Notes: a model not told the origin generated them from the sequence alone. A stretch of DNA of 64,000 nucleotides from Flavobacteriales bacterium (GCA_038154685.1 JAYPYW010000001.1:36761-100760), one strand, 5' to 3'; numbered from the stretch's first letter, positions 1,033 through 58,335 are shown. Translations and numbers: made by a program.

Positions 1033-4000
1033 TTGGGGATGAAAAAAATTCTATTCCATCTTTTTCTATTATTATCTGGAACTTTGTTATCGCAAAGTTA
1101 CCACATGCGTACGCTTACCCAAGAGGATGACAGCTTAGCAGACAACACCGTAAATGATCTTCTTCAGGACAGAAGGGGGTTAATTTGGATGGCAACCGAT
1201 CAAGGGATTTCACAATGGAACGGTATCGAATTCTCCCAAATAATTAAAACCAAAGATCTTCCAGCTAAAGAAGTACAATGTTTATATGAGGATGTAAAAG
1301 GTCATTTGTGGATTGGTACATCAGGCGGTTTATCTGTTTATGATGGCTATAACTTAAAAAATTTCACCGAAGAAGATGGTCTTCCTTCCAATGCTATTAA
1401 ATCAATCGTTGAAGATGGATTTGGCCGTTTATGGATTGGTACTCACAGAGGTGGATTATGTACTTTAGATAACTTTTCGAATGATGGGACTAAGTTTTTA
1501 AAATATGAACTCAGATCCAGATCAATACAAAACCTTACTATAAATAAAGTAATAGAAACTCCTGACGCAAAAGTTTATGCTGGTACGGACATTGGGTTGT
1601 TTGAAATAGACAATGGAAATGATAAGTTATTTGGAGCCAGACAAGGCGTAAGAGGCCAGGTTGAAGACATAATTGAAGATGTTAATGGGGATATTTGGAT
1701 TGGAACTGATGAAGGTCTGATTCTTAAATCCAATACAAACATCAAAAAATTCCACATATCTACAGGATTTCCCATAAGAGGTGTTAAATCCTTGGAGATT
1801 GATAAATCTGATAACATATGGATTGGAACTCTTATCAACGGAGTTATCAAACTAAACATCAATACCTTCGAATACAAAGTTTACAACAATAACAACAGTA
1901 ATCTTTGTGGTAACTCAGTGAGCGCCATTCTTGAGGACGCGAATGATAATATTTGGGTCGCAGCAAGCGATATGGGTGTTTCCAAACTTACAGGAATATC
2001 ATTTTCTTATTTAAATGAAAAAAATGGTTTGCCAAATGAAAAAATCAACTCACTAATTCAGGGCCAAGATGGAAACTTCTGGTTTGGTACGGAAAGAGGA
2101 TTGATATGGTCAGATCAAAAGGATTCAATATATGTATTTAATAAATCCAATGGTTTACCAACCAATTATGTCTCAACTGTTTTCGAAGATGATGAAGATA
2201 ACATATGGGTAGGTACGATTGCGGGACTTACAAAAATCAGAAACAGAGAAATTGTTAAAACCTATGGTTTTATGGATGGATTTTCTCCTATTACATGTAT
2301 TTCCCAGGATGATGAAGGAATAGTTTGGGTAGGAACTAAAGGTGGTGGAGTTGCCCAAATTGATGGAGAAAAAATCAAATTCCTAAGAATGATCGATGGT
2401 TTGCCAAACGGAGATATTACAGCTGTTACAAAGGACCAATCTGGCAAGATTTGGATTGGAACAAGGAATACTGGTATCATTTGGTATAACGGGATTGAAT
2501 TTGCCACTATAACAGAGGAGGACGGGCTATTACCTTCCAATAAAATTAATACCATGATTAAGGGTCCAAGGAAAGAGATTTACATTGGAACTAGAAATGG
2601 TTTAACTATTTATAATGAAAGCAGACAAGGAAGTGAAACTAATATTACTACTATTACCTCAAAGAATTCAAAACTCTCCTCAGACAATATTAAATCTTTA
2701 ATTGTTGATGAAGACAATGATTTGTGGGTGGCTACGAATGCGGGCTTAGACCGTATTTCTTTTAACCCACCGCAAGTTACTCGACAAACAGGGGAATTGA
2801 TTTCAGAAATCAAGCACTTTGGAAACACACATGGAGTAATCGGAAGGAAAATTAACACCAATGCCGTTTGTGAGGATTTTGATGGTAATGTATGGTTCGG
2901 AACGACAATTGGAGCGCTTAAACATGATAGGACGGTAGATAATACTAATGATGTTGCTCCTCAGGTTTTCTTTACAGGGTTAAACCTTAATGGACAAAAA
3001 ATAGATTGGAAAAATAGAAACTTTGAAGTTGAACCTTGGAGTGGGATTCCAAAAAACCTTGTACTTCCTTATGATTCTTCTACCGTTACTTTTGAGTTTG
3101 TTGGAGTAAACCATGATAATACTTCAAACGGGACAGCTTATTATTGGTATCTGCAAGGATATGAAGAACCTAATTTCATCCCTAAATTCGAAAACGAAAT
3201 TGAGTACAAAAAAATCCCTCCTGGAGATTATACTTTCATCGTATACTCTTGTAATGGTGATGAAATTTGTAGTGATAAAACACCTGCTAAATTCTCTTTC
3301 ACTATTTCACCACCCTTTTGGCAAGAAATCTGGTTTATTTCATTGCTTGTAATTGTTGTAATTGGATCAATCATTCTTTTCATCCAGTTCAGAGAAAGAA
3401 AACTAGTTGCTGAAAGAGAATTATTGGAAGAAAAAGTAAAAGAACGTACGCAGGAGGTTGTAGATAAAAACAAACAGCTTGAATTAGTTAACCTTGAAAT
3501 GGTTGCTAAAAACAAAGAGATTGAAGAAAAAAATAACGACCTGAACTCAAGTATTAGGTATGCTTTAACAATTCAGCAAGCATCCTTCCCACCTGTTCAG
3601 GATTTAAAAGATCAAATTCCAAACTCATTTATTTACCATCTACCAAGAGACATTGTTTCTGGAGACTTTTATTGGTACAGAAAAGTTGGATCGAAATTCG
3701 TTATTGCATGTGCCGATTGTACAGGGCATGGTGTTCCAGGTGCTTTAACTAGTATGATTGGAATTGCCCTTTTAAATGAAATTGTCGGGGGTAATAAAAT
3801 AACTGATCCTGCATTAGCCCTTGCTAATCTTGATAAAGGTATTTTAAAGGCTTTCGAGAACAGTGAATCTGAAACTAATGACGGGATGGATATTAGTTTG
3901 ATTACTGTTGATATTGAAAACAAGGTTATTGAATATGCTGGTGCTTACCGACCATTAATTATGGTTAGAGATGGAGAGTTAGCAGAACACAAGGCTACTA

Positions 4001-4284
4001 AAATGTCCATTGGGTTTAAAGACGTTCCAAACAAAGTTTTTGAAAAAACTACACTTCAATTCCAAGAAGGTGATTGCTTCTACATGTTCTCAGATGGTTA
4101 CCCTGATCAATTCGGAGGAGAAAAAAATAAGAAGTTTAAAACTAAAACCATGAAAGAGATGCTAGTTCAAGCTGCATCTATTGATATGGCCTCTCAAAAA
4201 GAAATTGTTGACCAACGATTAAGAGAATGGATGGGAGATAACGAACAAGTTGATGACATACTTGTTATGGGGATAAAGTTCTAA
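1033..4284 (+). CDS. Membrane sensor protein: signal peptide, two-component-regulator beta-propeller repeats, Y_Y_Y domain, TM helix, coiled coil, C-terminal SpoIIE/PP2C-type Ser phosphatase domain
   Basis: N-terminal MKKILFHLFLLLSGTLLSQ signal peptide. Many W.GT..GL repeats of the Reg_prop type, then YYWYL...DYTF of the Y_Y_Y type. Hydrophobic segment EIWFISLLVIVVIGSIILFIQF, then a K/E-rich coiled coil. C-terminal DFYWY...CADCTGHGVPGAL...NDGMDISL matches SpoIIE/RsbU PP2C phosphatase motifs. Confidence 0.8.
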   Translation: MGMKKILFHLFLLLSGTLLSQSYHMRTLTQEDDSLADNTVNDLLQDRRGLIWMATDQGISQWNGIEFSQIIKTKDLPAKEVQCLYEDVKGHLWIGTSGGLSVYDGYNLKNFTEEDGLPSNAIKSIVEDGFGRLWIGTHRGGLCTLDNFSNDGTKFLKYELRSRSIQNLTINKVIETPDAKVYAGTDIGLFEIDNGNDKLFGARQGVRGQVEDIIEDVNGDIWIGTDEGLILKSNTNIKKFHISTGFPIRGVKSLEIDKSDNIWIGTLINGVIKLNINTFEYKVYNNNNSNLCGNSVSAILEDANDNIWVAASDMGVSKLTGISFSYLNEKNGLPNEKINSLIQGQDGNFWFGTERGLIWSDQKDSIYVFNKSNGLPTNYVSTVFEDDEDNIWVGTIAGLTKIRNREIVKTYGFMDGFSPITCISQDDEGIVWVGTKGGGVAQIDGEKIKFLRMIDGLPNGDITAVTKDQSGKIWIGTRNTGIIWYNGIEFATITEEDGLLPSNKINTMIKGPRKEIYIGTRNGLTIYNESRQGSETNITTITSKNSKLSSDNIKSLIVDEDNDLWVATNAGLDRISFNPPQVTRQTGELISEIKHFGNTHGVIGRKINTNAVCEDFDGNVWFGTTIGALKHDRTVDNTNDVAPQVFFTGLNLNGQKIDWKNRNFEVEPWSGIPKNLVLPYDSSTVTFEFVGVNHDNTSNGTAYYWYLQGYEEPNFIPKFENEIEYKKIPPGDYTFIVYSCNGDEICSDKTPAKFSFTISPPFWQEIWFISLLVIVVIGSIILFIQFRERKLVAERELLEEKVKERTQEVVDKNKQLELVNLEMVAKNKEIEEKNNDLNSSIRYALTIQQASFPPVQDLKDQIPNSFIYHLPRDIVSGDFYWYRKVGSKFVIACADCTGHGVPGALTSMIGIALLNEIVGGNKITDPALALANLDKGILKAFENSESETNDGMDISLITVDIENKVIEYAGAYRPLIMVRDGELAEHKATKMSIGFKDVPNKVFEKTTLQFQEGDCFYMFSDGYPDQFGGEKNKKFKTKTMKEMLVQAASIDMASQKEIVDQRLREWMGDNEQVDDILVMGIKF

Positions 4285-17640: not shown

Positions 17641-17850
17641 ATGGAACAAGACGAAACTGACGGAAGATATAGGAGAAATGTTAAGTTTGGATACGAAGTA
17701 GAAATCGTACAAAAACATCATCAACGAACGGGGGAGCTAACCCAAGGAACAGTAAAGAAACTACTTACAAAATCTCAGCACCATCCCCATGGAATAAAAG
17801 TTATGTTAACAGATGGGAAAGTAGGGCGCGTTAAAAACGTATTACTTTAA
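17641..17850 (+). CDS. YwbE-like small protein (DUF2196)
   Basis: 69 aa; GYEVEIVQKHHQRTGELTQG...GIKVML.DGKVGRV pattern typical of the YwbE family. Confidence 0.6.
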   Translation: MEQDETDGRYRRNVKFGYEVEIVQKHHQRTGELTQGTVKKLLTKSQHHPHGIKVMLTDGKVGRVKNVLL

Positions 17851-18371
17851 CAACACCCACTACCAGGTGTACAAACGTTTTCAGATGAAGCTTGGATCGT
17901 TTTCAATTGAACTTTTGGCTTTTCTTCCCTAGCTGGAGGGGCGCAACATGCAGAAGCATCCTCTGAAGCATATTTAGGATCGTTAAACTCAACGTCTTCA
18001 TGGAAGTAATAAACTTCCCATTGAATTCCATCAGGATCGGTTACCCAAAATTTATCTTGAACTGCGTAACAACAGGAAGTTCCTATTTCTTCTTTAGTTG
18101 TTAACCCTAATAAATTAGCAACCTCTAATCGATCCTTCATTTCTTCATGAGTCGCAACTTGAAACCCTAAATGACCAAAATTAGATTGTACTCTTTCTGG
18201 ATTTTGAATAAAAGAAATAATCAAAGCAGGTTCGTTTAACTCATATTTAGCATATCCTTCTTTTACCTTCGATGGTAAAACCCCAAAAAAGGCGGTATAA
18301 AATTGAACCGACTTCCCTAAATCACTTACGTATAGGGAAACATGCATTCTAGGAAATTTATTCTCACTCAT
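17847..18371 (-). CDS. arsI: ArsI/CadI-family glyoxalase-fold protein (putative organoarsenical C-As lyase) with vicinal Cys pair and Cys-rich C-terminal tail
   Basis: VOC/glyoxalase fold (MHVSLYVSDL...FGHLGFQV). Vicinal cysteines in GTSCCYAVQD, as in ArsI. C-terminal ...ACCAPP...CTPGSGCC. Immediately downstream of arsR. Confidence 0.65.
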   Translation of the reverse strand: MSENKFPRMHVSLYVSDLGKSVQFYTAFFGVLPSKVKEGYAKYELNEPALIISFIQNPERVQSNFGHLGFQVATHEEMKDRLEVANLLGLTTKEEIGTSCCYAVQDKFWVTDPDGIQWEVYYFHEDVEFNDPKYASEDASACCAPPAREEKPKVQLKTIQASSENVCTPGSGCC

Positions 18372-18383
18372 CTTTCTTCACTT

Positions 18384-18719
18384 TTAACAACAATCATCGG
18401 TATTGCACTGCTGAATTGCAATTACAACGCCGCTAACAAAAACAGCTATTTCATTCAAAACATCAGGATTTATACAGTAGCATAAACTTGACCCACTTAC
18501 CTCTCCTTTTATAATTCCAACAGCCTTTAATTCACTTAAATGCTTAGAAATAGTACTTTGAGCAAGTGGCAATTCTTCAACAATATCATTACAAATACAT
18601 GAAGGGTTTTTAATCATGTACTCAATAATTGACATCCTAGCTGGGTGGCCAATAGCCTTGAACAACTCAGCTAATCTTAATGTTTCTTCCTTAAATCCTT
18701 CTACCTTTGAAATACCCAT
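18384..18719 (-). CDS. arsR: ArsR/SmtB family metalloregulator
   Basis: wHTH with As(III)-binding CxC in the DNA-recognition region (SCICNDIVEEL...STISKHL). Also a C-terminal CNTDDCC cysteine cluster. Confidence 0.85.
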   Translation of the reverse strand: MGISKVEGFKEETLRLAELFKAIGHPARMSIIEYMIKNPSCICNDIVEELPLAQSTISKHLSELKAVGIIKGEVSGSSLCYCINPDVLNEIAVFVSGVVIAIQQCNTDDCC

Positions 18720-18737
18720 ATCGTAATATTACGATAT
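18718..18737. promoter_or_regulatory. 20-bp perfect palindrome ATATCGTAATATTACGATAT overlapping the arsR start codon; candidate ArsR operator
   Basis: Perfect dyad read directly from the sequence; position spans the arsR ATG. Confidence 0.45.
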
Positions 18738-18745
18738 AAAGATAC

Positions 18746-18787
18746 ATAAAAAAAACACCTGTGCATACTTTATTACAACAGGTGTTT
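18746..18787 (-). terminator. Rho-independent terminator after PBP1A gene (reverse strand)
   Basis: AAACACCTGT...ACAGGTGTTT 10-bp stem with a T8 run on the reverse strand. Confidence 0.7.
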
Positions 18788-18822: not shown

Positions 18823-21459
18823 TTAAAACTCATCGAAATCGACGGTTTCAGAAGTTTCAATCGCATTTGCCTTTCTCTTAGTACAATCAAACTCTTCGTT
18901 TTCGAGCGATTCAGGTACCTCAAACTCACCTTGCGAAATTTTCAATTTTGGATTCTTATAAATATCGTTCATATAATACCCCCAAATTGGTAATGCCATA
19001 TTTGTTCCCATTCCTAATTTTAACGATAAGAAATGAGCTGCACGATCTTCACAACCAGTCCATACACCAGTAACTAAATCAGGGGTAATCCCCATAAACC
19101 ATCCGTCACTCTGCATTTGAGTAGTCCCGGTTTTACCTGAGATTTTAATTGAGTATGGAAGTTTTCCATACGGACGATTTGGAGACCTTAATCTTACCCC
19201 TGTTCCGTATGTTGATTTACCTTGAACATTTGGTCCGTAATTAGCAACACCACTCAATAACTCAATCATTTTGTATGCATTCTCCTCTGTCATTGCCTCC
19301 TTTCGTTTTGCAGAAGGACGCCAAATTATAGATCCATTTTTATCTTCAATTCTTGTTATGAATTGAGGTTCAATTCTAATCCCTTTATTGGCAAATACAC
19401 AATATGCCGAAACCATATCATACAAAGAAACATCAGGCGTTCCTAAACAGATAGATGGTACTGGTTCAATTGGGGTTGTGATACCGCATCTTCTGGCAAC
19501 GTTTATTACTGCCTCTGGACCGAAATTCTTCATAATTCTGGCAGTAATTGAGTTGATTGAATTTGCTAGCGCCATTTTAAGGGTTAATGGTTGACCACTT
19601 AAATGCGATTCTCCTCCAGCATTCTTTGGTTTCCAAGGCTCCTCTAATCCATATAAGCCAGCAGGGAAAGTTACTTCTTCATTTAAATACTCTTCACAAG
19701 GATTTACACCATTCTCTATAGCTGTTGCATATACAAAAGGTTTAAATGTGGATCCAACTTGACGAGTTGCTCTTACATGATCATACTGGAAATATTTATA
19801 GTTAATTCCCCCAACCCAAGCTCTTATAAATCCAGTATGAGGATCAATAGACAATAATCCTGAACGCAGGTACCATTTATGATGGATAACTGAATCTCGA
19901 GGACTCATAACTGTGTCCTTCTCTCCTTCCCAAGTAAAGACACGCATACTAATCTTTTTATCGAACTCATCCATCATTTTTTTATCGAATGGTTCCCAAA
20001 ATTTTAGATATTCAGTACGTTTTTCTTCTAGTTCAGACTTAAAACTCTTGATCTTCTTCTTGTACTTTTTAATACTATCCTGAAAAGCTTCAATCTCTTT
20101 TCTTGCCCTTTGTTTTTCTTTTAAAATCGCTCTTGCATTAGTAGAATCACGATTTAATCTGTTTAACTCTTGTTGGACTAAATAACGCTTATCATCATTG
20201 GCTTTAACCTTATTTTTCCAGCGTTGATTTTTATATGTAGCCCTGTTGTAAGCGTAGGTAACTTTTTTAACCGAAGGGTTAGCATCTAAAGCCTTTTTAT
20301 AACGCCCGCTAGTTCTAATTCCGTTCTTAATTAGCTTTTCAACTGCATCCGCTTTTTCGTCAGCAGTATAGTCTTCAAAGTAGAATGGAGCATACTTTCT
20401 TAATCCTCTCGATTTAGATTTCCAATGCTTAAAGAAAGCTGGTTGTAGTTCCTTTCCAAGGTGAGTTTTAACAGCATTCTCAGCATACTTTTGCATGTCG
20501 TAATTTATACTTGTATAAATCTTTAACCCATCCTCATAAATATCATACTTAGTACCATCTGGTCTTTTTAATTCTTTGAAAATCTTCTTTAATTTCTTTC
20601 TTACTTCCTCCCTGAAATATGTAGCAATTCCACTTCTGTGAGATGCTCGCGTGAATCTTAACCCAAGTGGCAGGGTTTTTAAGCTGTCAAACTCTTCTTG
20701 TGTGATTTTTTCGTTTTTAAGCATCTGAGCGAAAACCACATTTCTTCTGAATAAAGTTGTATCAGGTCTTCTTAATGGATTAAATAATGATGGGTTTTTA
20801 GCCATTCCAACAAACATGGCTGCTTGTTCGATTTTTAAATCTTCGGGATTAGTATCAAAGTAAACTTGAGAGGCCGATTTTATTCCAGCCGCGTTATTAA
20901 CGAAATCCAGCGTATTGAAATACATCGTAAGGATCTCTTCCTTGGTATACTGACGTTCCAATTTAACAGCAACAACCCATTCCTTAAGTTTCTGAAATGC
21001 TCTTTCCCACTTGTTTTTTACAACCTGCTCAGTAAATAGCATTTTTGCTAACTGTTGGGTAATTGTAGATCCTCCCCCGGAACTTCCACCCTTTAGGACT
21101 GCTCTGGCTAAAGACTTACCATCAATTCCACTATGATCATAATATCGTTCATCCTCGGTACTAACAAGTGCCTCAATTAGATATGGTGATAACTCTTTGT
21201 ATTCTGCAAGCGCTCTATTCTCTTTAAAAATGGTACCTAATTGTTTACCATCCGATGATAACAACCTTGTTGCCAAAGAAGTACTTGGATTTTCGAGTTG
21301 TTGGAATGAAGGTAATTTCCCTAATAATTCATCGTTAGCAATACCATTAAAGAAGTAATAAACGGAACCTATTCCCATTAAAAAAACAATCCAAAAGGCG
21401 ATTATGAACCCTTTGTAGGAAGGCTTAACTTTTTCAGGGATGTTTGCTTCTTCAGTCAT
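18823..21459 (-). CDS. mrcA: Penicillin-binding protein 1A (bifunctional GT51 transglycosylase / transpeptidase)
   Basis: N-terminal TM. GT51 motifs EDERYYDHSGID and GGSTITQQLAK. Transpeptidase STFKPF (SxxK) and KTGT. About 150-aa coiled-coil insertion between the domains. Confidence 0.9.
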   Translation of the reverse strand: MTEEANIPEKVKPSYKGFIIAFWIVFLMGIGSVYYFFNGIANDELLGKLPSFQQLENPSTSLATRLLSSDGKQLGTIFKENRALAEYKELSPYLIEALVSTEDERYYDHSGIDGKSLARAVLKGGSSGGGSTITQQLAKMLFTEQVVKNKWERAFQKLKEWVVAVKLERQYTKEEILTMYFNTLDFVNNAAGIKSASQVYFDTNPEDLKIEQAAMFVGMAKNPSLFNPLRRPDTTLFRRNVVFAQMLKNEKITQEEFDSLKTLPLGLRFTRASHRSGIATYFREEVRKKLKKIFKELKRPDGTKYDIYEDGLKIYTSINYDMQKYAENAVKTHLGKELQPAFFKHWKSKSRGLRKYAPFYFEDYTADEKADAVEKLIKNGIRTSGRYKKALDANPSVKKVTYAYNRATYKNQRWKNKVKANDDKRYLVQQELNRLNRDSTNARAILKEKQRARKEIEAFQDSIKKYKKKIKSFKSELEEKRTEYLKFWEPFDKKMMDEFDKKISMRVFTWEGEKDTVMSPRDSVIHHKWYLRSGLLSIDPHTGFIRAWVGGINYKYFQYDHVRATRQVGSTFKPFVYATAIENGVNPCEEYLNEEVTFPAGLYGLEEPWKPKNAGGESHLSGQPLTLKMALANSINSITARIMKNFGPEAVINVARRCGITTPIEPVPSICLGTPDVSLYDMVSAYCVFANKGIRIEPQFITRIEDKNGSIIWRPSAKRKEAMTEENAYKMIELLSGVANYGPNVQGKSTYGTGVRLRSPNRPYGKLPYSIKISGKTGTTQMQSDGWFMGITPDLVTGVWTGCEDRAAHFLSLKLGMGTNMALPIWGYYMNDIYKNPKLKISQGEFEVPESLENEEFDCTKRKANAIETSETVDFDEF

Positions 21460-31890: not shown

Positions 31891-34800
31891 TTGTTTTTTT
31901 CTAATAGTATACGCACCTTTGCCAATATGCGTGGTTTGAAGTATGTCTTACTATTATTTGTCCTTCTCTGTTTTTCGCCAGCGAAAGCTACAGATATAGA
32001 TTTACTCAAATGTGAGCAGTTCACTATTGATGATGGGCTTCCTCAAAGTTTTATTGAGAAGGTTTTCCAGGACGATAAAGGTTTTCTTTGGATTGCGACT
32101 CAAGATGGAATATCAAAATTTAATGGGTATCAATTCGAAAACTTCTTTTCAAACCCGTTTGATACAAGTACTATTGCTAGTAATTATGTGATTAATATCA
32201 ATAACTGGAATGGTGATTCGGTGTTATTCACTACTAGTATTGGACTTTCTATTTTCGATCCTGCTTCGAAAACATTTTCTAACAATGCCATTAGTTTAGA
32301 GCATAATGAAGTTGGAAATATTTCATCTTCTGTTATGCTATCTAAAGACTCCATATTTATTGGTGGAGGAAAAGGGCTATTCCAATTTGAATCCCTAAAA
32401 AACGGATATGATCTTAATCTTTTGGTTAAAAGAAATATTTCAAACACTGTATTTTTTAATCAAAAACTAACCTATAGCTCCGAAAACAAGATTTACCAGA
32501 TTATAAACGGTGAAGAAAAATTAATCCAAACATTTGATTCAAACATTCATGCTTTATTTGTTTCGAGGAATAGTTTATATGTTTCGCTTCAAAATGACTT
32601 TTTCAAACTTAAAAACAACTACGAACCAGACACAAGCTTTTGGGTTGATCACCGGGTAAACGATTTTATTATTGAAGATGGAGTTTATTGGCTTGCAACT
32701 CAAAATAATGGTGTTGTTGTTTGTGATCAGAACGTTTCGAATTCAGCCCTAAAACACCACAGCATAACTTTTTTAAGTAAAAGAATAAGCTCAATATACA
32801 AGGATAATTTTGGAGTTATTTGGATTGGGACCAACAAGGGATTAAATAAGATTGATCCTTCCAAAAAAGAGTTTTTGCAATACAAAGCATCCGCTTATCA
32901 CCCAGCATCAACCGACAATTGTTGGTCTTTCTTTGAAAACGATTCACTTTTCTTTTCTGGTTATGATAATGGTTTACAAATCAAAAAGAAAGGCTCTTCC
33001 GAATCAAAATGGATTGAATTCGATGGATTAATTCTTGATATCAACGCTGTTGATGAAAAAACGATCCTTGGAACTTCTTCTGGAGTTTATGAACTAAAAA
33101 TTGAAAATGATTCCATTTTTATTGGAGATACAAATCTCATCGATCTTGGAATAAACGGTAAACAAGATATTGTTTTCAAGTTCAAAAAATTTAAAAACAA
33201 ATTACTTGTCGGAAGTAACAACTACCTTTCTATATATGATGAAAATCTAACCCTTGTGAATAGATGGAATATTAAGGGTGTTCGAGATTTTACAATTTTT
33301 AATAACCAAATATACTTTACTGCATCTCCAACAGGAATTTACCAGCTTTACAATATTGAGGATTCAGAACTCACTAACTTTAAAAAAATAAACCTTCCAG
33401 AAGTTGAGCATTTACTGGGTTTATCGATCGCTAGTGGTAATGATCATATTTGGTTAGGTTTATATGGTGGAGGGTTAATTAAATACGATTACAAAAAGAA
33501 GAGTACTCAGCATTTCTCTACCCAAAATGGATTACCCAATAATACCATTTACTCCATTATTAATCACAAAAATTCCCTCTGGTTAAGTACGAATGGTGGT
33601 TTATCTAAACTAGACTTGAAAACAGAGGAATTTCAAAACTTTAATAATGCAGACGGAGTTCAAAGTTTAGAATTTAACTCTGGCGCAGGATTCAAAGGTA
33701 AAAATGGTAATATTTACTTCGGGGGTATTGATGGTTATAACATTGTTAATCCTAGGGTGGAAAACAGGAACTCATTCCCACCGAAAGTATACATCTCATC
33801 ATTCATGTACAAAGGGGAAAACTTATTACAAGTTGATGACAACAACAGTAACTATGATAAAGTATCCAAAACAATTACAATTCCCCACAGGAAGAATAGC
33901 TTTAAAATATTTGTGGATGCATTGCACTACTCATCACCAAATGACAATATTTTTAAAACAAAACTGGAAGGTTGGCAAAACGAATGGGTAATTAGTAAAG
34001 GAAAACCTGTTTTCCAATTTAGCAATCTAAAAGACGGAGAGTACTTTTTTGTTGTAAACGCAGCGAATTCCGATGGTGTATGGAGTTATAATGAGCAAAG
34101 GATAAAAATAATTATCAAACCCCCATTCTACTTAACTTGGTGGTTCATATCGGGTACTTCAGTAATTGTGATTGGTTTACTTGCTTTCTTAATTTATTCA
34201 AGAATAAACAGATCAAAATTCCAACGTGAAATATTAGAGCGTAAAGTAAGAGACCGCACTAGAGAAGTTGAAAATCAAAAGAAAAAACTAGAAGAAAAGA
34301 ACAAGGAACTAGAATACGAAAAAAACAAGGAAGAAGAAGTCCTTTTAAATGTTCTTCCTAGAGAAACGGCAAAAGAACTAGTATCCACTGGAAAATCTAC
34401 TCCCAAGAGTTACAAGATGGCAACAGTAATGTTCGCCGACTTTAAAAACTTCACCAAAATCACCGAAAATCTTGGTCCAAAAGAGTTAGTTGCAGAGTTG
34501 GATGATTCGTTTGCAAAGTTTGATGATATAGTTGGAAAACTAAACATCGAGAAAATCAAAACTTCCGGTGATGCTTACATGTGTGTTGGAGGAGTTCCTA
34601 TTAGAAACCAAACCAATCCTGTTGATTGTGTTTTAGCGGCTTTCCAATTCCAAAAGTATATGCACCAAAAACGTGAAATTAGGGAAGGAACTGGAAAACC
34701 TCAATGGCATTTAAGAATTGGAATGCATACCGGAGCTTTAGTTGCTGGAGTAGTAGGTAAAAAGAAATTCCTATATGATGTTTGGGGAGATACTGTAAAC

Positions 34801-35643
34801 ACTGCTGCACGAATGGAAACAAGTGCAGATGAAGGTAAGATCAACGTTTCTGGGACCACCTACGAATACATTAAAGATTACTTTGATTGTGAGTATAGAG
34901 GTAAATTACCTGTAAAAAATAAGGGCGCCATCGATATGTATTACGTAAACAGAATTAAGGCAGGTTTATGTAAAGATGAAGAAGGTCAAACACCGAATAG
35001 GAAATTCTTTGAACTACTCAACTTCAAGGTTTATACTCAGCAAAATTTCCATAACGTTCGAGATTACTTCCTAGACTTATTAGAGCAAAACGAGTTTGTT
35101 TCTAAACTCAAATACCATGGTCCCCACCATACACTAGATGTAATGGAAGCTGCCGAAAGAATTGGTCGTGCAGAAGGATTGGGAGAAGAAGAGCTAATGT
35201 TGGTTAAAGTCGCTGCCTTATTCCACGATAGTGGCTTCCTTAATAAATACCAAAATAACGAGCCTGAAGGTGCTAAATTGGCAAAGAGGGAACTTCCTCG
35301 TTATGGATTTACGGATGCTCAGGTTGAAATTGTAGAAGGAATGATTTTAGCTACTAAAATCCCTCAAGAGCCTAAAAATCATCTCGAGGAAATCCTTTGT
35401 GATGCAGATTTAGATTACTTAGGTAGAGACAAGGAAGAGTTTGATAAAATCAGTTCTTCACTTGCTCAGGAATTAATTGATATGAAGATTCTTAAATCCC
35501 TTGATGCCTGGGATCCAATACAGGTTAAATTTCTTGAGGCTCATCAATACTTCACCAAAACTTGTATTGAAACCCGAAGGCCAGGCAAAATTGAAAGATT
35601 GAGAGAAATTAGAGACCGACTGCAAGGACCTAATGAGGAGTAA
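31891..35643 (+). CDS. Membrane sensor protein: beta-propeller/Y_Y_Y periplasmic domain, TM, coiled coil, class III adenylate cyclase domain, C-terminal HD phosphohydrolase domain
   Basis: N-terminal hydrophobic segment. W.GT repeats and a Y_Y_Y region. TM LTWWFISGTSVIVIGLLAFLIYS, then a K/E coiled coil. Cyclase motifs VMFADFKNFT, KIKTSGDAYMCVGG, YDVWGDTVNTAARME, where the K/D specificity residues indicate ATP. HD motif HHTLDV...LFHDSG...DADLDYLG. Confidence 0.8.
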   Translation: MFFSNSIRTFANMRGLKYVLLLFVLLCFSPAKATDIDLLKCEQFTIDDGLPQSFIEKVFQDDKGFLWIATQDGISKFNGYQFENFFSNPFDTSTIASNYVININNWNGDSVLFTTSIGLSIFDPASKTFSNNAISLEHNEVGNISSSVMLSKDSIFIGGGKGLFQFESLKNGYDLNLLVKRNISNTVFFNQKLTYSSENKIYQIINGEEKLIQTFDSNIHALFVSRNSLYVSLQNDFFKLKNNYEPDTSFWVDHRVNDFIIEDGVYWLATQNNGVVVCDQNVSNSALKHHSITFLSKRISSIYKDNFGVIWIGTNKGLNKIDPSKKEFLQYKASAYHPASTDNCWSFFENDSLFFSGYDNGLQIKKKGSSESKWIEFDGLILDINAVDEKTILGTSSGVYELKIENDSIFIGDTNLIDLGINGKQDIVFKFKKFKNKLLVGSNNYLSIYDENLTLVNRWNIKGVRDFTIFNNQIYFTASPTGIYQLYNIEDSELTNFKKINLPEVEHLLGLSIASGNDHIWLGLYGGGLIKYDYKKKSTQHFSTQNGLPNNTIYSIINHKNSLWLSTNGGLSKLDLKTEEFQNFNNADGVQSLEFNSGAGFKGKNGNIYFGGIDGYNIVNPRVENRNSFPPKVYISSFMYKGENLLQVDDNNSNYDKVSKTITIPHRKNSFKIFVDALHYSSPNDNIFKTKLEGWQNEWVISKGKPVFQFSNLKDGEYFFVVNAANSDGVWSYNEQRIKIIIKPPFYLTWWFISGTSVIVIGLLAFLIYSRINRSKFQREILERKVRDRTREVENQKKKLEEKNKELEYEKNKEEEVLLNVLPRETAKELVSTGKSTPKSYKMATVMFADFKNFTKITENLGPKELVAELDDSFAKFDDIVGKLNIEKIKTSGDAYMCVGGVPIRNQTNPVDCVLAAFQFQKYMHQKREIREGTGKPQWHLRIGMHTGALVAGVVGKKKFLYDVWGDTVNTAARMETSADEGKINVSGTTYEYIKDYFDCEYRGKLPVKNKGAIDMYYVNRIKAGLCKDEEGQTPNRKFFELLNFKVYTQQNFHNVRDYFLDLLEQNEFVSKLKYHGPHHTLDVMEAAERIGRAEGLGEEELMLVKVAALFHDSGFLNKYQNNEPEGAKLAKRELPRYGFTDAQVEIVEGMILATKIPQEPKNHLEEILCDADLDYLGRDKEEFDKISSSLAQELIDMKILKSLDAWDPIQVKFLEAHQYFTKTCIETRRPGKIERLREIRDRLQGPNEE

Positions 35644-39640: not shown

Positions 39641-39676
39641 AATATACTTAACCGTTATTACCAATTAACAAACTAA

Positions 39677-39698
39677 GCCGCATTAATGCGGCTTTTTT
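39677..39698 (+). terminator. Rho-independent terminator
   Basis: Perfect 16-nt palindrome GCCGCATTAATGCGGC followed by TTTTTT. Confidence 0.75.
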
Positions 39699-41634: not shown

Positions 41635-42165
41635 ATGAAAAAGATAATCGCTTTCTCAGGAAGTAATAGTAAAAATTCTATTAATCAAAAATTAGCTATG
41701 GTAGCGTCTAAAATGGTTACTAAAGCTGAAGTTGAAATAATAAATCTTAGCGATTATTCTGCTCCCATTTATGGTATTGACGAAGAAACAGAGAATGGAT
41801 TTCCGCAAAGTATGATAGATTTAAAAAATAAGCTGGCAGAAGCGGATGGTTATATTATTTCAACTCCTGAGCATAATGGCTCAATTCCTGCTTTTTTCAA
41901 AAATGCAATAGATTGGCTTTCCAGACAAAGTAGATCTGTTTTAAACGACCAGCCAACTGTTTTCCTAAGCACATCACCAGGTGCCAGAGGAGGTAAAACT
42001 GCCTTAGCTCATTTGGTAAGTATCATGCCTTACCAGGGAGCAAAAGTCATTGGATCACACTCAGTGGGAAGTTTCAATGATAAAATGCTTAATGAAGACC
42101 TAATTGAAGGTGAAGATAAAACAGCAATCCTTCAATTAATTAAAGATTTAGAAAGTCAGTTATAA
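41635..42165 (+). CDS. NAD(P)H-dependent FMN reductase (flavodoxin-like fold)
   Basis: MKKIIAFSGSNSKNSINQKLA...ISTPEHNGSIPA pattern of the FMN_red family. Confidence 0.8.
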   Translation: MKKIIAFSGSNSKNSINQKLAMVASKMVTKAEVEIINLSDYSAPIYGIDEETENGFPQSMIDLKNKLAEADGYIISTPEHNGSIPAFFKNAIDWLSRQSRSVLNDQPTVFLSTSPGARGGKTALAHLVSIMPYQGAKVIGSHSVGSFNDKMLNEDLIEGEDKTAILQLIKDLESQL

Positions 42166-47914: not shown

Positions 47915-48520
47915 ATGAAATCTCATTGGGAAAATATTTATTCGAAAAAAGGTGATCAAGAAGTTAGCTGGTATCAGGAAACTCCCAGTTCTTCCTTGGA
48001 TTTAATTAACAAGAATTCTATTGATAAAGAATCCGATCTGATAGATGTTGGCGCTGGTAATTCTAACTTAATTATCGAACTAAATAAACAAGGATTTAAA
48101 AATTTGACGGCACTTGATATTTCAGGTAAAGCCCTAGAGAGAACAAAAGAAAAACTAGGCCCTAAAGCTGATGAAATAAACTGGGTTGAAACAGATATTC
48201 TAGATTTCGAGCCAGACAAAACATTTGATGTTTGGCATGATCGTGCTGTTTTCCATTTTTTAACTAATGAAAATGAAATAAAGCAATATGTTGATCTAGT
48301 TTCCAAAAATTTATCCCCTGGAGGACTTTTTATTCTTTCCACTTTCTCATCAGAAGGTCCATTAAAATGTAGCGGATTAGAAATTAGCCAATATAACGAG
48401 GCGCAACTTGTTAAACTTTTCGGAACCAGTTTTGAATTAAAAAGTTGTTTTACCAAAGATCATATTACTCCTTTTAGTACAAAGCAAAATTTTATTCACG
48501 CTGTTTTTTCCAAGAAATAG
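47915..48520 (+). CDS. Class I SAM-dependent methyltransferase
   Basis: Motif I LIDVGAGNSNL; 201 aa. Confidence 0.8.
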   Translation: MKSHWENIYSKKGDQEVSWYQETPSSSLDLINKNSIDKESDLIDVGAGNSNLIIELNKQGFKNLTALDISGKALERTKEKLGPKADEINWVETDILDFEPDKTFDVWHDRAVFHFLTNENEIKQYVDLVSKNLSPGGLFILSTFSSEGPLKCSGLEISQYNEAQLVKLFGTSFELKSCFTKDHITPFSTKQNFIHAVFSKK

Positions 48521-57092: not shown

Positions 57093-57665
57093 TTACTTAA
57101 TCAAACTCAATATTTTTTCGTCCATTGGATTTACTGAACTTTCAAAATGAGCAATCATTTTTCCGTTCTCATCAACTAAAAACTTATTAAAGTTCCAACT
57201 AACCTTAGCGTCTAAAACACCATTCTTTTCTTTTTGTGTTAACCACTGGTATAATGGATGTTGATCTTTTCCTTTAACATCCGCTTTCTCTAACATCGTG
57301 AAAGTAACTCCATAGTTTTTCTGACAAAATTCCGCGATCTTTTCATTTGATCCTGGTTCCTGACCCATAAATTGGTTGCAAGGCATTCCAACTACTTCTA
57401 CCTTATCACTGTGTTGATCATATAACTTCTGTAAGTCAGCATACTGTTTCGTGAAACCACATTTAGACGCAGTATTTACAATTAAAACTTTCTTTCCTTT
57501 AAACTTTTCAAGGGTTAAATCTTCCCCAGAAAGACTCTTTAATTTAATATCTAATATCGAAGTTGCATTCATAACTAACATGCTCATTAAGATGATGATG
57601 GCTTTCATATTATTGTTTTTCCAAGAGACGATACTGACTTTAAAAATGTGGTACACCAAAAACAT
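57093..57665 (-). CDS. Glutathione peroxidase (secreted; likely start at MKAIIILMSM)
   Basis: Active-site NTASKCGFT, and the WNFNKFLV motif. Confidence 0.9.
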   Translation of the reverse strand: MFLVYHIFKVSIVSWKNNNMKAIIILMSMLVMNATSILDIKLKSLSGEDLTLEKFKGKKVLIVNTASKCGFTKQYADLQKLYDQHSDKVEVVGMPCNQFMGQEPGSNEKIAEFCQKNYGVTFTMLEKADVKGKDQHPLYQWLTQKEKNGVLDAKVSWNFNKFLVDENGKMIAHFESSVNPMDEKILSLIK

Positions 57666-57681
57666 TTAATCTTTATTTTAC

Positions 57682-58335
57682 ATGAATTGTTTGCCCACCC
57701 AAAGGCTTCATCGTAATATTGCGATATATTTTTTTACCATGGCATTACAAACCACAATTGAGAAAGCATTAACCGAATTTGATTTAATTCCGGATGAAAG
57801 AAAGGCAGATTTACAGAAATTAAGTGATTTTGTTAAAGACAGGAATGGAATGGCAGATTTGATTTTCATTTGCACTCATAATTCAAGAAGAAGTCACTTA
57901 TCTCAGGTTTGGGCACAAGTTGCTGCTCATCATTATGGTTTGTTTGGCGTTACTTGTTATTCAGGAGGAACTGAAGCAACTGCGTTTTTCCCTTCTGCAA
58001 TCGAAGCTTTAAAACATCATGGTATAAATATCAAAGCACTATCAGCTGAGCCCAATCCAGTTTATGCTGTTAAATACGACGAAGATGTTCATCCAATTAT
58101 TTGTTTCTCGAAAACTTATGATGATTCGTTTAACGCACAAAATGATTTTGCAGCGGTAATGACCTGTGATCACGCCGATCAAAACTGCCCTTTTATCCCA
58201 ACAGCTGGTGCTAGAATTCCAGTTAGATACGAAGACCCAAAAGTTGCCGACGGTACTCCTGGACAATTAGATAAATACATCGAAAGAAGCGCGCAAATCT
58301 GCAGAGAGATGCTGTATGCGTTTTCTCTAATTTAA
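57682..58335 (+). CDS. arsC: Low-molecular-weight phosphotyrosine phosphatase family protein, ArsC-like (thioredoxin-coupled arsenate reductase type); true start probably at an internal Met
   Basis: CX5R P-loop CTHNSRRS, plus two downstream cysteines spaced C-x7-C (TCDHADQNCP), consistent with the Cys10/Cys82/Cys89 relay of Bacillus-type ArsC. Confidence 0.65.
   Translation: MNCLPTQRLHRNIAIYFFTMALQTTIEKALTEFDLIPDERKADLQKLSDFVKDRNGMADLIFICTHNSRRSHLSQVWAQVAAHHYGLFGVTCYSGGTEATAFFPSAIEALKHHGINIKALSAEPNPVYAVKYDEDVHPIICFSKTYDDSFNAQNDFAAVMTCDHADQNCPFIPTAGARIPVRYEDPKVADGTPGQLDKYIERSAQICREMLYAFSLI

Follow-up and report, generated by a model that had tools for sequence, protein, structure and literature searches.

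Among the described systems closest to the locus reported here is the ars operon of the Bacillus subtilis skin element, whose gene order we take to be arsR-yqcK-acr3(arsB)-arsC. YqcK has been discussed as a relative of ArsI (PMC12607644). In the ArsI of Bacillus sp. MD1, the Fe ligands are His5, His62 and Glu115 and the cysteines are Cys96/97, according to a review that also gives Lys105 as required for activity (PMC12607644); residue roles in ArsI enzymes have also been published in PMC6138428.

The regulator closest to the one described below is ArArsR, from Arsenicibacter rosenii SM-1 (Cytophagaceae), which carries cysteines at positions C41, C43, C80, C82, C107 and C108 (PMC11868830). Reporter assays with Cys-to-Ser mutants have shown that the response to As(III) requires C41, C80 and C82, and that the response to MAs(III) requires C41 and C82. 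The C43S, C107S and C108S variants were fully responsive, these three residues being dispensable, and the C80S variant alone was MAs(III)-selective (PMC11868830). The DNase I footprint and EMSA probe of this repressor is a 27-mer, TTTTATCGTAATATTGCGATCACAATC, that contains the core ATCGTAATATTGCGAT (PMC11868830).

In this study we focus on a 64,000-nucleotide stretch of DNA from a Flavobacteriales bacterium (the whole stretch is hereafter called the window), in which an arsR gene is directly followed by an arsI gene.

Results

The arsR-arsI pair and its neighbourhood

Both genes lie on the minus strand. The arsR gene (18384-18719) encodes a protein of 111 aa, identified by ORF calling and by the NF033788 (64.1 bits, cut-off 55) and PF01022 (36.4 bits, cut-off 22) models, and arsI (17847-18371) encodes a 174-aa metalloenzyme of the ArsI/CadI family of VOC proteins, matched by NF041414. 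According to the ORF calls, 12 nt separate the two genes, and the stop codon of arsI overlaps that of a convergent ywbE/DUF2196 gene. An arsR gene paired with a gene for a glyoxalase-fold protein had been proposed in a first-pass annotation of this DNA, and both reading frames, with their features, were recovered at these positions.

Upstream of arsR lies a PBP1a gene (18823-21459). Inverted-repeat detection revealed between the two genes, on the minus strand, a hairpin AACACCTGT...ACAGGTGTT followed by T8 (18754-18786), which is not listed by the terminator scan because its loop is 15 nt long. This element is probably, from its sequence, the terminator of the PBP1a gene, and arsR would therefore need a promoter of its own within the next ~30 nt; the palindrome described below is found only ~10 nt beyond the hairpin and its T8 run. 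The same layout is repeated in a relative (L203), with another gene upstream.

The GC content of the module (0.34-0.36) is that of the window (mean 0.35). A relative with an 85% identical ArsR is syntenic with the window, and in close relatives the two genes are arranged identically amid the same housekeeping genes. It follows that the module is resident and not a recent island, and recent horizontal acquisition was ruled out by the normal GC content together with the synteny.

ArsR and its predicted sensing cysteines

The cysteines of the window ArsR are C41 and C43 (in SCICND), C80, C82, C105, C110 and C111. Among 70 arsI-linked relatives, none deviates at C41, C82, C110 or C111; C80 is shared by 69 of them, whereas C105 varies. 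The best 120 ArsR homologues, which form a closer set, have C41 and C82 in all 120 and C80 in 115, all six positions being nearly invariant. An AF2 model displays a helix-turn-helix and a beta hairpin, with C41 and C43 in a loop or short strand and C80 and C82 in the second wing strand; a homology model of ArArsR places these cysteines likewise (PMC11868830). No close solved structure was found for this ArsR subfamily.

ArArsR (OR208258) is absent from the best 120 homologues of the window ArsR, and the homology between the two proteins rests on fragments derived from the primers in the supplement of the ArArsR paper, on the register of the cysteines and on the operator. The fragments (MGVTKTE..., QLLAQKKACVCGDLVDEL, EINPPRVCYCINEAVW and ...TFTPNNCC) are in register with the window protein, with 6/18 and 7/16 identities. 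On this basis, the window ArsR is classified as an ArArsR-type repressor (the 'type 4' or 'new type').

The CxC motif (C41 and C43) had been taken as the As(III) site of the protein. This assignment could not be maintained, since C43S ArArsR is fully responsive and C43, a Cys in 25 of the 70 arsI-linked relatives, is N or S in the other 45; an R773-type CxC sensing site is ruled out on the same grounds. Moreover, the R773-type (type 1) Cys32-Cys34-Cys37 triad is incomplete: C41 and C43 correspond to C32 and C34, and the Cys37 position is occupied by Ile46 (CICNDIV). ArArsR likewise has no Cys at this position (PMC11868830). As regards the AfArsR/SpArsR-type (type 2) Cys95-Cys96(-Cys102) site, the C110-C111 pair is retained in the relatives and C105, although found in the window protein, is not, and the ArArsR C107S and C108S variants stay responsive.

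The operator at arsR

The predicted ArsR operator is a perfect 20-nt palindrome, ATATCGTAATATTACGATAT, at 18718-18737 (16-nt core at 18720-18735), whose first two bases belong to the arsR start codon, being the 'AT' of its minus-strand ATG. The perfect palindrome announced for the arsR start is thus indeed there. Such a palindrome is not rare by itself: a perfect one of at least 20 nt occurs in 31 of 200 Markov-1 simulated 64-kb windows of the same composition, and the window contains a second perfect 20-nt palindrome at 39675-39694. The significance of the site is therefore argued from its conservation.

The core at the arsR site is identical in 15/16 positions to the footprinted ArArsR core. 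That the palindrome is an operator of ArsR, as the first-pass annotation had it, is consequently supported by a footprint obtained with the orthologous repressor (PMC11868830), the assignment here being by sequence match. In 59 of 80 related genome loci, ATCGTAATATTRCRAT is found exactly, and once, upstream of arsR. Among the metagenome matches listed, the exact 16-mer occurs in at least 120 contigs (at least 123 occurrences), and 84 of the 123 are followed by an arsR homologue within 80 nt; a few further occurrences among these listed matches directly precede arsC200, arsM or DUF6428 genes, and four are chance matches inside ABC-ATPase genes. The Pontibacter loci have a different palindrome, ATGaCGTATGTTTACGTCAT.

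Position 11 of the operator is G (ATTGC) in 48 of 48 distinct related operators and A at the window arsR site. Hence the consensus is not a perfect palindrome, and the symmetry to which attention had been drawn, although real at this site, is a one-base exception. The A at this position could weaken the promoter box embedded in the operator.

A probable promoter within the operator

The sigma-70 promoter scan gave no minus-strand site upstream of arsR, but its model is not applicable to Bacteroidota, and the published -7 box consensus was used in its place. In Flavobacterium, the sigmaA -7 box (TAnnTTTG) extends from -12 to -5 (PMC9723704). The operators contain a conserved TAATATTG that resembles this box, the form present in the window arsR operator being TAATATTA. 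Nearly all loci have 0-20 nt between operator and ATG; in the window, as in L203 and eight further loci, this distance is 0. From the sequence, we infer that the operator harbours the -7 box and that the arsR transcript is leaderless, starting at the A of the ATG. Because the operator abuts the ATG, the overlap with a '-35' element proposed for ArArsR cannot hold in the window. Three loci have no arsR (L001, L002 and L061); upstream of their arsI, an operator was found only in L061, in a degenerate form with 3 mismatches.

A second operator in front of an ArsC-like gene

The footprinted core ATCGTAATATTGCGAT occurs in the window on the plus strand at 57710-57725, where the predicted second operator is identical to it in 16/16 positions. 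This copy, 39 kb from arsR-arsI, ends 13 nt before an ATG at 57739 and is oriented toward the downstream gene as in all arsR loci. The gene, arsC200 (57739-58335, plus strand), encodes an ArsC-like protein of 198 aa with the LMW-PTP fold. An ArsC-like gene had been placed at 57682-58335; the gene is present, but its start is almost certainly at 57739, given that homologues of 199-201 aa align from residue 17 in the same register and that the operator copy lies inside the longer ORF starting at 57682.

Over its whole length, the arsC200 product shares 50% identity with that of L006:8512-9117, the gene that follows arsI in Aquirufa/Cytophagaceae operons. Its P-loop CX5R(S/T), formed by C45-x5-R51-S52 (CTHNSRRS), and its C143 and C150 (tCdhADqNCP) align with C10, C82 and C89 of the S. 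aureus pI258 ArsC. The protein scores 26.7 bits against Pfam LMWPc and is below the NCBIfam ArsC cut-offs, reaching 44.8 bits, over the N-terminal half only, against 174.3 for TIGR02691 (the pI258, thioredoxin-coupled type). Stand-alone operator-arsC200-acr3 units are found in metagenomes (L101 and L128). Since an operator precedes arsC200 and its orthologue directly follows arsI in relatives, the arrangement is, as read from sequence, a split ArsR regulon joined by two copies of one operator and not a stand-alone organoarsenical module.

The ArsI enzyme

ArsI matches the NCBIfam equivalog NF041414 (ArsI_CadI_VOC) with 144.9 bits (cut-off 116), residues 8-150 covering profile positions 1-142 of 147. 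Among solved structures, the best match is TcArsI from Thermomonospora curvata (PDB 5c4p; E=1e-23, 40% identity over 120 aa). In the alignment of the two proteins, H10, H67 and E119 correspond to the TcArsI Fe(II) ligands Q8, H65 and E117, C100/C101 to the substrate pair C98/C99, and K107 to K105; C100/C101 and K107 sit in the substrate loop TSCCYAVQDKFWV. These six residues are invariant in 33 relatives (65-76% identity), as is the loop TxCCYAxQDKxWVxxPxGxxWEVY across the ArsI clade. Homologues number 1,780 proteins at E<=1e-10, for the most part from Bacteroidota.

The family assignment made earlier is therefore borne out by the score and by the presence of the vicinal CC pair and the metal triad. 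The Q/H/E iron triad that an alignment was expected to reveal is found as a triad, but without the Q: judged by this alignment, it is H/H/E as in the Bacillus MD1 enzyme and not as in T. curvata. In the AF2 model of ArsI, the pairing of the two modules departs from that in the TcArsI crystal structure, and global superposition is contradictory or ambiguous; the model carries no weight in the family assignment.

The cysteine-rich tail

Residues 8-126 of ArsI constitute the catalytic core and residues ~128-174 a Cys-rich tail (CC...CxPGSGCC), the second feature, beside the C100-C101 pair, that had been pointed out in this protein. The tail cysteines C142, C143, C167, C173 and C174 are invariant in the 33 relatives, and the tail, with a pLDDT below 50 in the AF2 model, is predicted to be disordered. 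It is homologous to the C-termini of DUF6428 proteins and of some ArsM proteins (E=1e-7 and 2e-4 by blastp-short), the majority of which end in GCC; this common tail accounts for a sub-threshold match of ArsI to DUF6428. In the literature collection searched, no paper on DUF6428 was found.

Related loci, and genes absent from the window

Close relatives of ArsI are encoded in 80 genome loci, from Aquirufa, Crocinitomicaceae, Fluviicola, Pontibacter and others. In 77 of them arsR is directly upstream of arsI, and 63 have the order arsR-arsI-arsC, to which a MIP channel is added in 22. Acr3 is found in 8 loci, of which the seven from Pontibacter have arsR-arsI-(phosphoesterase)-acr3 without arsC and L078 has arsR-arsI-arsC-acr3. 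The bare arsR-arsI pair is found only in L003, L045 and the near relative L203. Among the metagenome matches listed, the second gene behind the operator encodes DUF6428 in ~31 cases and ArsM in ~28, and arsI follows arsR in 7.

The module had been described as lacking an arsenite pump, ArsM and ArsH, and tblastn, Pfam and NCBIfam searches found none of them in the 64 kb. The tblastn search, for which the only queries were the Acr3, MIP channel and phosphoesterase of the relatives, gave nothing below E=0.1. The multi-pass membrane proteins of the window belong to the SpoIIM, acyltransferase_3 and RDD families, and a DUF58 protein is unrelated. The methyltransferase at 47915-48520 has no ArsM match, and the FMN reductase at 41635-42165 reaches 24 bits against an ArsH cut-off of 292.

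Discussion

The arsR-arsI pair reported here is quite probably a minimal, split form of the Bacteroidota ArArsR-type arsenic regulon. When no arsenic is present, an ArsR dimer would occupy the inverted repeat ATCGTAATATT(A/G)CGAT, as has been shown for ArArsR on the same core; one operator copy would cover the promoter and start codon of arsR-arsI, and the other, 39 kb away, would act from its position 13 nt upstream of arsC200. Binding of As(III) to C41, C80 and C82, or of MAs(III) to C41 and C82, would release the repressor from DNA, as shown by the ArArsR mutants and expected here from the positions of the cysteines. The arsR and arsI genes would then be co-transcribed from the -7-box-like TAATATTA, on an mRNA that is probably leaderless or nearly so. 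With Fe(II) held by H10, H67 and E119, its substrate by C100/C101, and O2, ArsI would release As(III) from methylarsenite and trivalent aromatic arsenicals by breaking their C-As bond, a reaction demonstrated with the enzymes of Bacillus MD1, Nostoc and T. curvata and suggested here by the family and the conserved catalytic residues. The ArsC-like protein, de-repressed separately, may reduce arsenate through a C45/C143/C150 thiol cascade, and As(III) would exit via a channel or pump encoded outside the window.

The pair had been interpreted as a dedicated organoarsenical response. On such a reading it would be a stand-alone module of an R773-like CxC ArsR and a demethylating ArsI, independent of the handling of inorganic arsenic. 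In its favour, the operon consists of arsR and arsI alone, 64 kb of DNA contain no pump, ArsM or ArsH, and the same bare pair exists in L003, L045 and L203. This interpretation is nevertheless improbable, since all three cysteines of the As(III) site (C41, C80 and C82) are in place and, among the variants, only C80S is MAs(III)-selective, ArArsR does not need C43 and arsI-linked relatives do not conserve it, the operator is also found before the ArsC-like gene of the window, and arsI is co-operonic with arsC in 63 of 80 relatives, often together with MIP or Acr3.

Two further explanations concern what the VOC protein does. It could be something other than a C-As lyase in vivo, namely a CadI-like protein, a protein that binds or buffers As(III) through its tail, or a dioxygenase acting on another thiol-reactive substrate: NF041414 lumps ArsI with CadI, the conserved five-Cys tail is common to DUF6428 and ArsM proteins of the same regulon, and the AF2 model does not have the module arrangement of TcArsI. 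Against this, the metal triad, the CC pair, the Lys105 equivalent and the whole substrate loop are invariant in the clade, and the protein is 40% identical to an enzyme with solved substrate complexes, so that we regard a non-lyase function as unlikely. A response to cadmium or soft metals, in which the ArsR-family protein would sense Cd(II) and the VOC protein would be the CadI orthologue, is very improbable. CadI is a cadmium-induced protein for which we know of no function. The cadmium alternative, also raised in the first-pass annotation, can draw on the family name ArsI/CadI, on the regulator's weak match to CmtR (31 bits, cut-off 150) and on the ArArsR inducer panel, which is without Cd (PMC11868830). 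[quoted passage not shown] The context gives it no support, the co-operonic partners in relatives all being arsenic genes, and it was rejected on this evidence.

A more speculative proposal, which we consider doubtful, is that the Cys-rich extension (ACC-x23-CxPGSGCC) may serve as a transferable As(III)-binding unit, in effect a metallochaperone built into the enzyme, which would capture the As(III) product or substrate and hand it over. If true, an As(III)-binding tail would explain how a pump-less arsR-arsI pair stands alone in this lineage.

Our work leaves the current understanding of arsenic resistance unchanged. It widens the range of the ArArsR-type regulator, first described from an arsRMC operon in 2025, to include arsI operons across Flavobacteriales and Cytophagales, and it indicates that the footprinted operator is a phylum-wide, highly specific signal by which dispersed arsenic regulons can be recognised, the detached ArsC-like gene being an example. 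It also draws attention to DUF6428, the commonest partner gene behind the operator, as an unstudied arsenic protein. With its two genes and two operators, the system is simple enough to serve as a natural test bed for how aquatic Bacteroidota sense and demethylate methylarsenite.

Comparison with known systems

With ArArsR and the ArarsRMC operon of A. rosenii SM-1 (Zhang et al., mLife 2025, PMC11868830), the locus shares cysteines at the same numbers and a C-terminal CC, the N-terminus MG[IV][ST]K, an autoregulated first gene, the Bacteroidota host and the operator core ATCGTAATATTGCGAT, matched in 16/16 positions at arsC200 and 15/16 at arsR. It differs in that arsI is downstream of arsR in place of arsM-arsC, that the arsC-type gene lies apart, behind an operator of its own, that a G-to-A change makes the arsR site perfectly palindromic, and that this site abuts the ATG, as opposed to -46..-19 in A. 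rosenii. SpArsR of Shewanella putrefaciens 200, which is MAs(III)-selective, is likewise an ArsR controlling organoarsenical genes and has a vicinal C-terminal Cys pair. In the ArArsR type, by contrast, the C-terminal CC is dispensable and there is a three-Cys As(III) site, so that MAs(III) selectivity is not expected.

The window ArsI has the VOC fold, the Fe(II) triad, the vicinal Cys and the Lys105 equivalent of the C-As lyases (Bacillus MD1 ArsI, Nostoc NsArsI, and TcArsI, 5c4p and related structures), with a near-identical substrate loop and the H/H/E triad of the Bacillus enzyme, and departs from them by a Cys-rich tail of ~45 residues (CC-x23-CxPGSGCC). As in the B. subtilis skin element, an ArsI-like VOC gene directly follows arsR; in that operon, however, a pump and a reductase belong to the same transcription unit, and the repressor and the operator are of another type. 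CadI of Mycobacterium tuberculosis (Rv2641) also belongs to the NF041414 family and adjoins an ArsR-family gene, but the window regulator fails the model of the Rv2640c family (40.7 against 155 bits) and the context in the window is arsenic-specific. The locus is thus made of known kinds of components, an ArArsR-type repressor and an ArsI-family lyase, and what is new in it is that the regulon is split, that the operator directly adjoins the start codon and that the Cys-rich tail is shared with DUF6428 and ArsM proteins.

Operator asymmetry and variant operators

The 16-nt core of the ArsR site carries a conserved asymmetry, which falls on the terminal G of the TAATATTG stretch resembling the -7 box (TAnnTTTG, the Flavobacterium sigmaA promoter element). 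This G, at operator position 11, is found in all 48 distinct related operators from the genome loci L003-L080; in the window it is present at the site preceding the ArsC-like gene arsC200 (57710-57725), and an A is found at the arsR site (18720-18735). In Pontibacter (L012, L015, L021, L022, L027, L032 and L033), arsR-arsI-(phosphoesterase)-acr3 operons use another palindrome, ATG(A/T)CGTATGTTTACGTCAT, which likewise encloses a TAnnTTTG-like box (TATGTTTA). Additional operator-like repeats lie 5' of arsR in L008, L023, L031 and L039 (e.g. TAATATTGCGATATAGCAATATT...CAATATTGC).

Genes at the second operator and arsI loci lacking arsR

The intergenic region containing the second operator of the window is shared by the ArsC-like gene and a divergent glutathione-peroxidase gene (57093-57665, minus strand), and it is possible that the two genes are co-regulated.

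The closest ArsI relatives found in genomes are encoded at L001 and L002 (76% identity). At these two loci, as well as at L061, no arsR adjoins arsI. Of the three, only L061 retains an operator, in degenerate form (ATCGTTATTTTGCAAT), at a distance of 20 nt before arsI. This pattern points to regulation of arsI in trans or to a loss of its control.

Other features of the window

A second perfect 20-nt palindrome, AAGCCGCATTAATGCGGCTT, is located between two lipoprotein-like genes (39675-39694) and is probably a terminator stem. Two very large proteins, which bear no relation to the arsenic genes, are encoded at 1033-4284 and 31891-35643. From inspection of the translations by eye, both appear to be sensors of the beta-propeller/Y_Y_Y type; one has an apparent terminal PP2C/SpoIIE-like phosphatase domain, and the other an apparent terminal adenylate/guanylate cyclase domain together with an HD domain.

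DUF6428 and the Cys-rich tail of ArsI

Among the listed metagenome contigs with the exact operator (L083-L202), the gene most often found directly 3' of an arsR of the Arsenicibacter rosenii ArArsR type encodes DUF6428 (about 31 cases), an uncharacterised Pfam family that is not mentioned in the literature searched. In L145 and L176, a second exact operator lies within the operon, before the DUF6428 gene.

ArsI of the window ends in a Cys-rich tail (ACC...CxPGSGCC; residues ~128-174, encoded at 17847-17987). Homology to this tail is seen at the C-terminal ends of DUF6428 proteins, and of certain ArsM enzymes, whose genes follow the same operator at L145, L151, L176 and other metagenome loci, and 26 of the 31 DUF6428 proteins from the metagenome loci terminate in GCC. 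From these sequences, the tail common to ArsI, DUF6428 and some ArsM proteins looks like a portable module.
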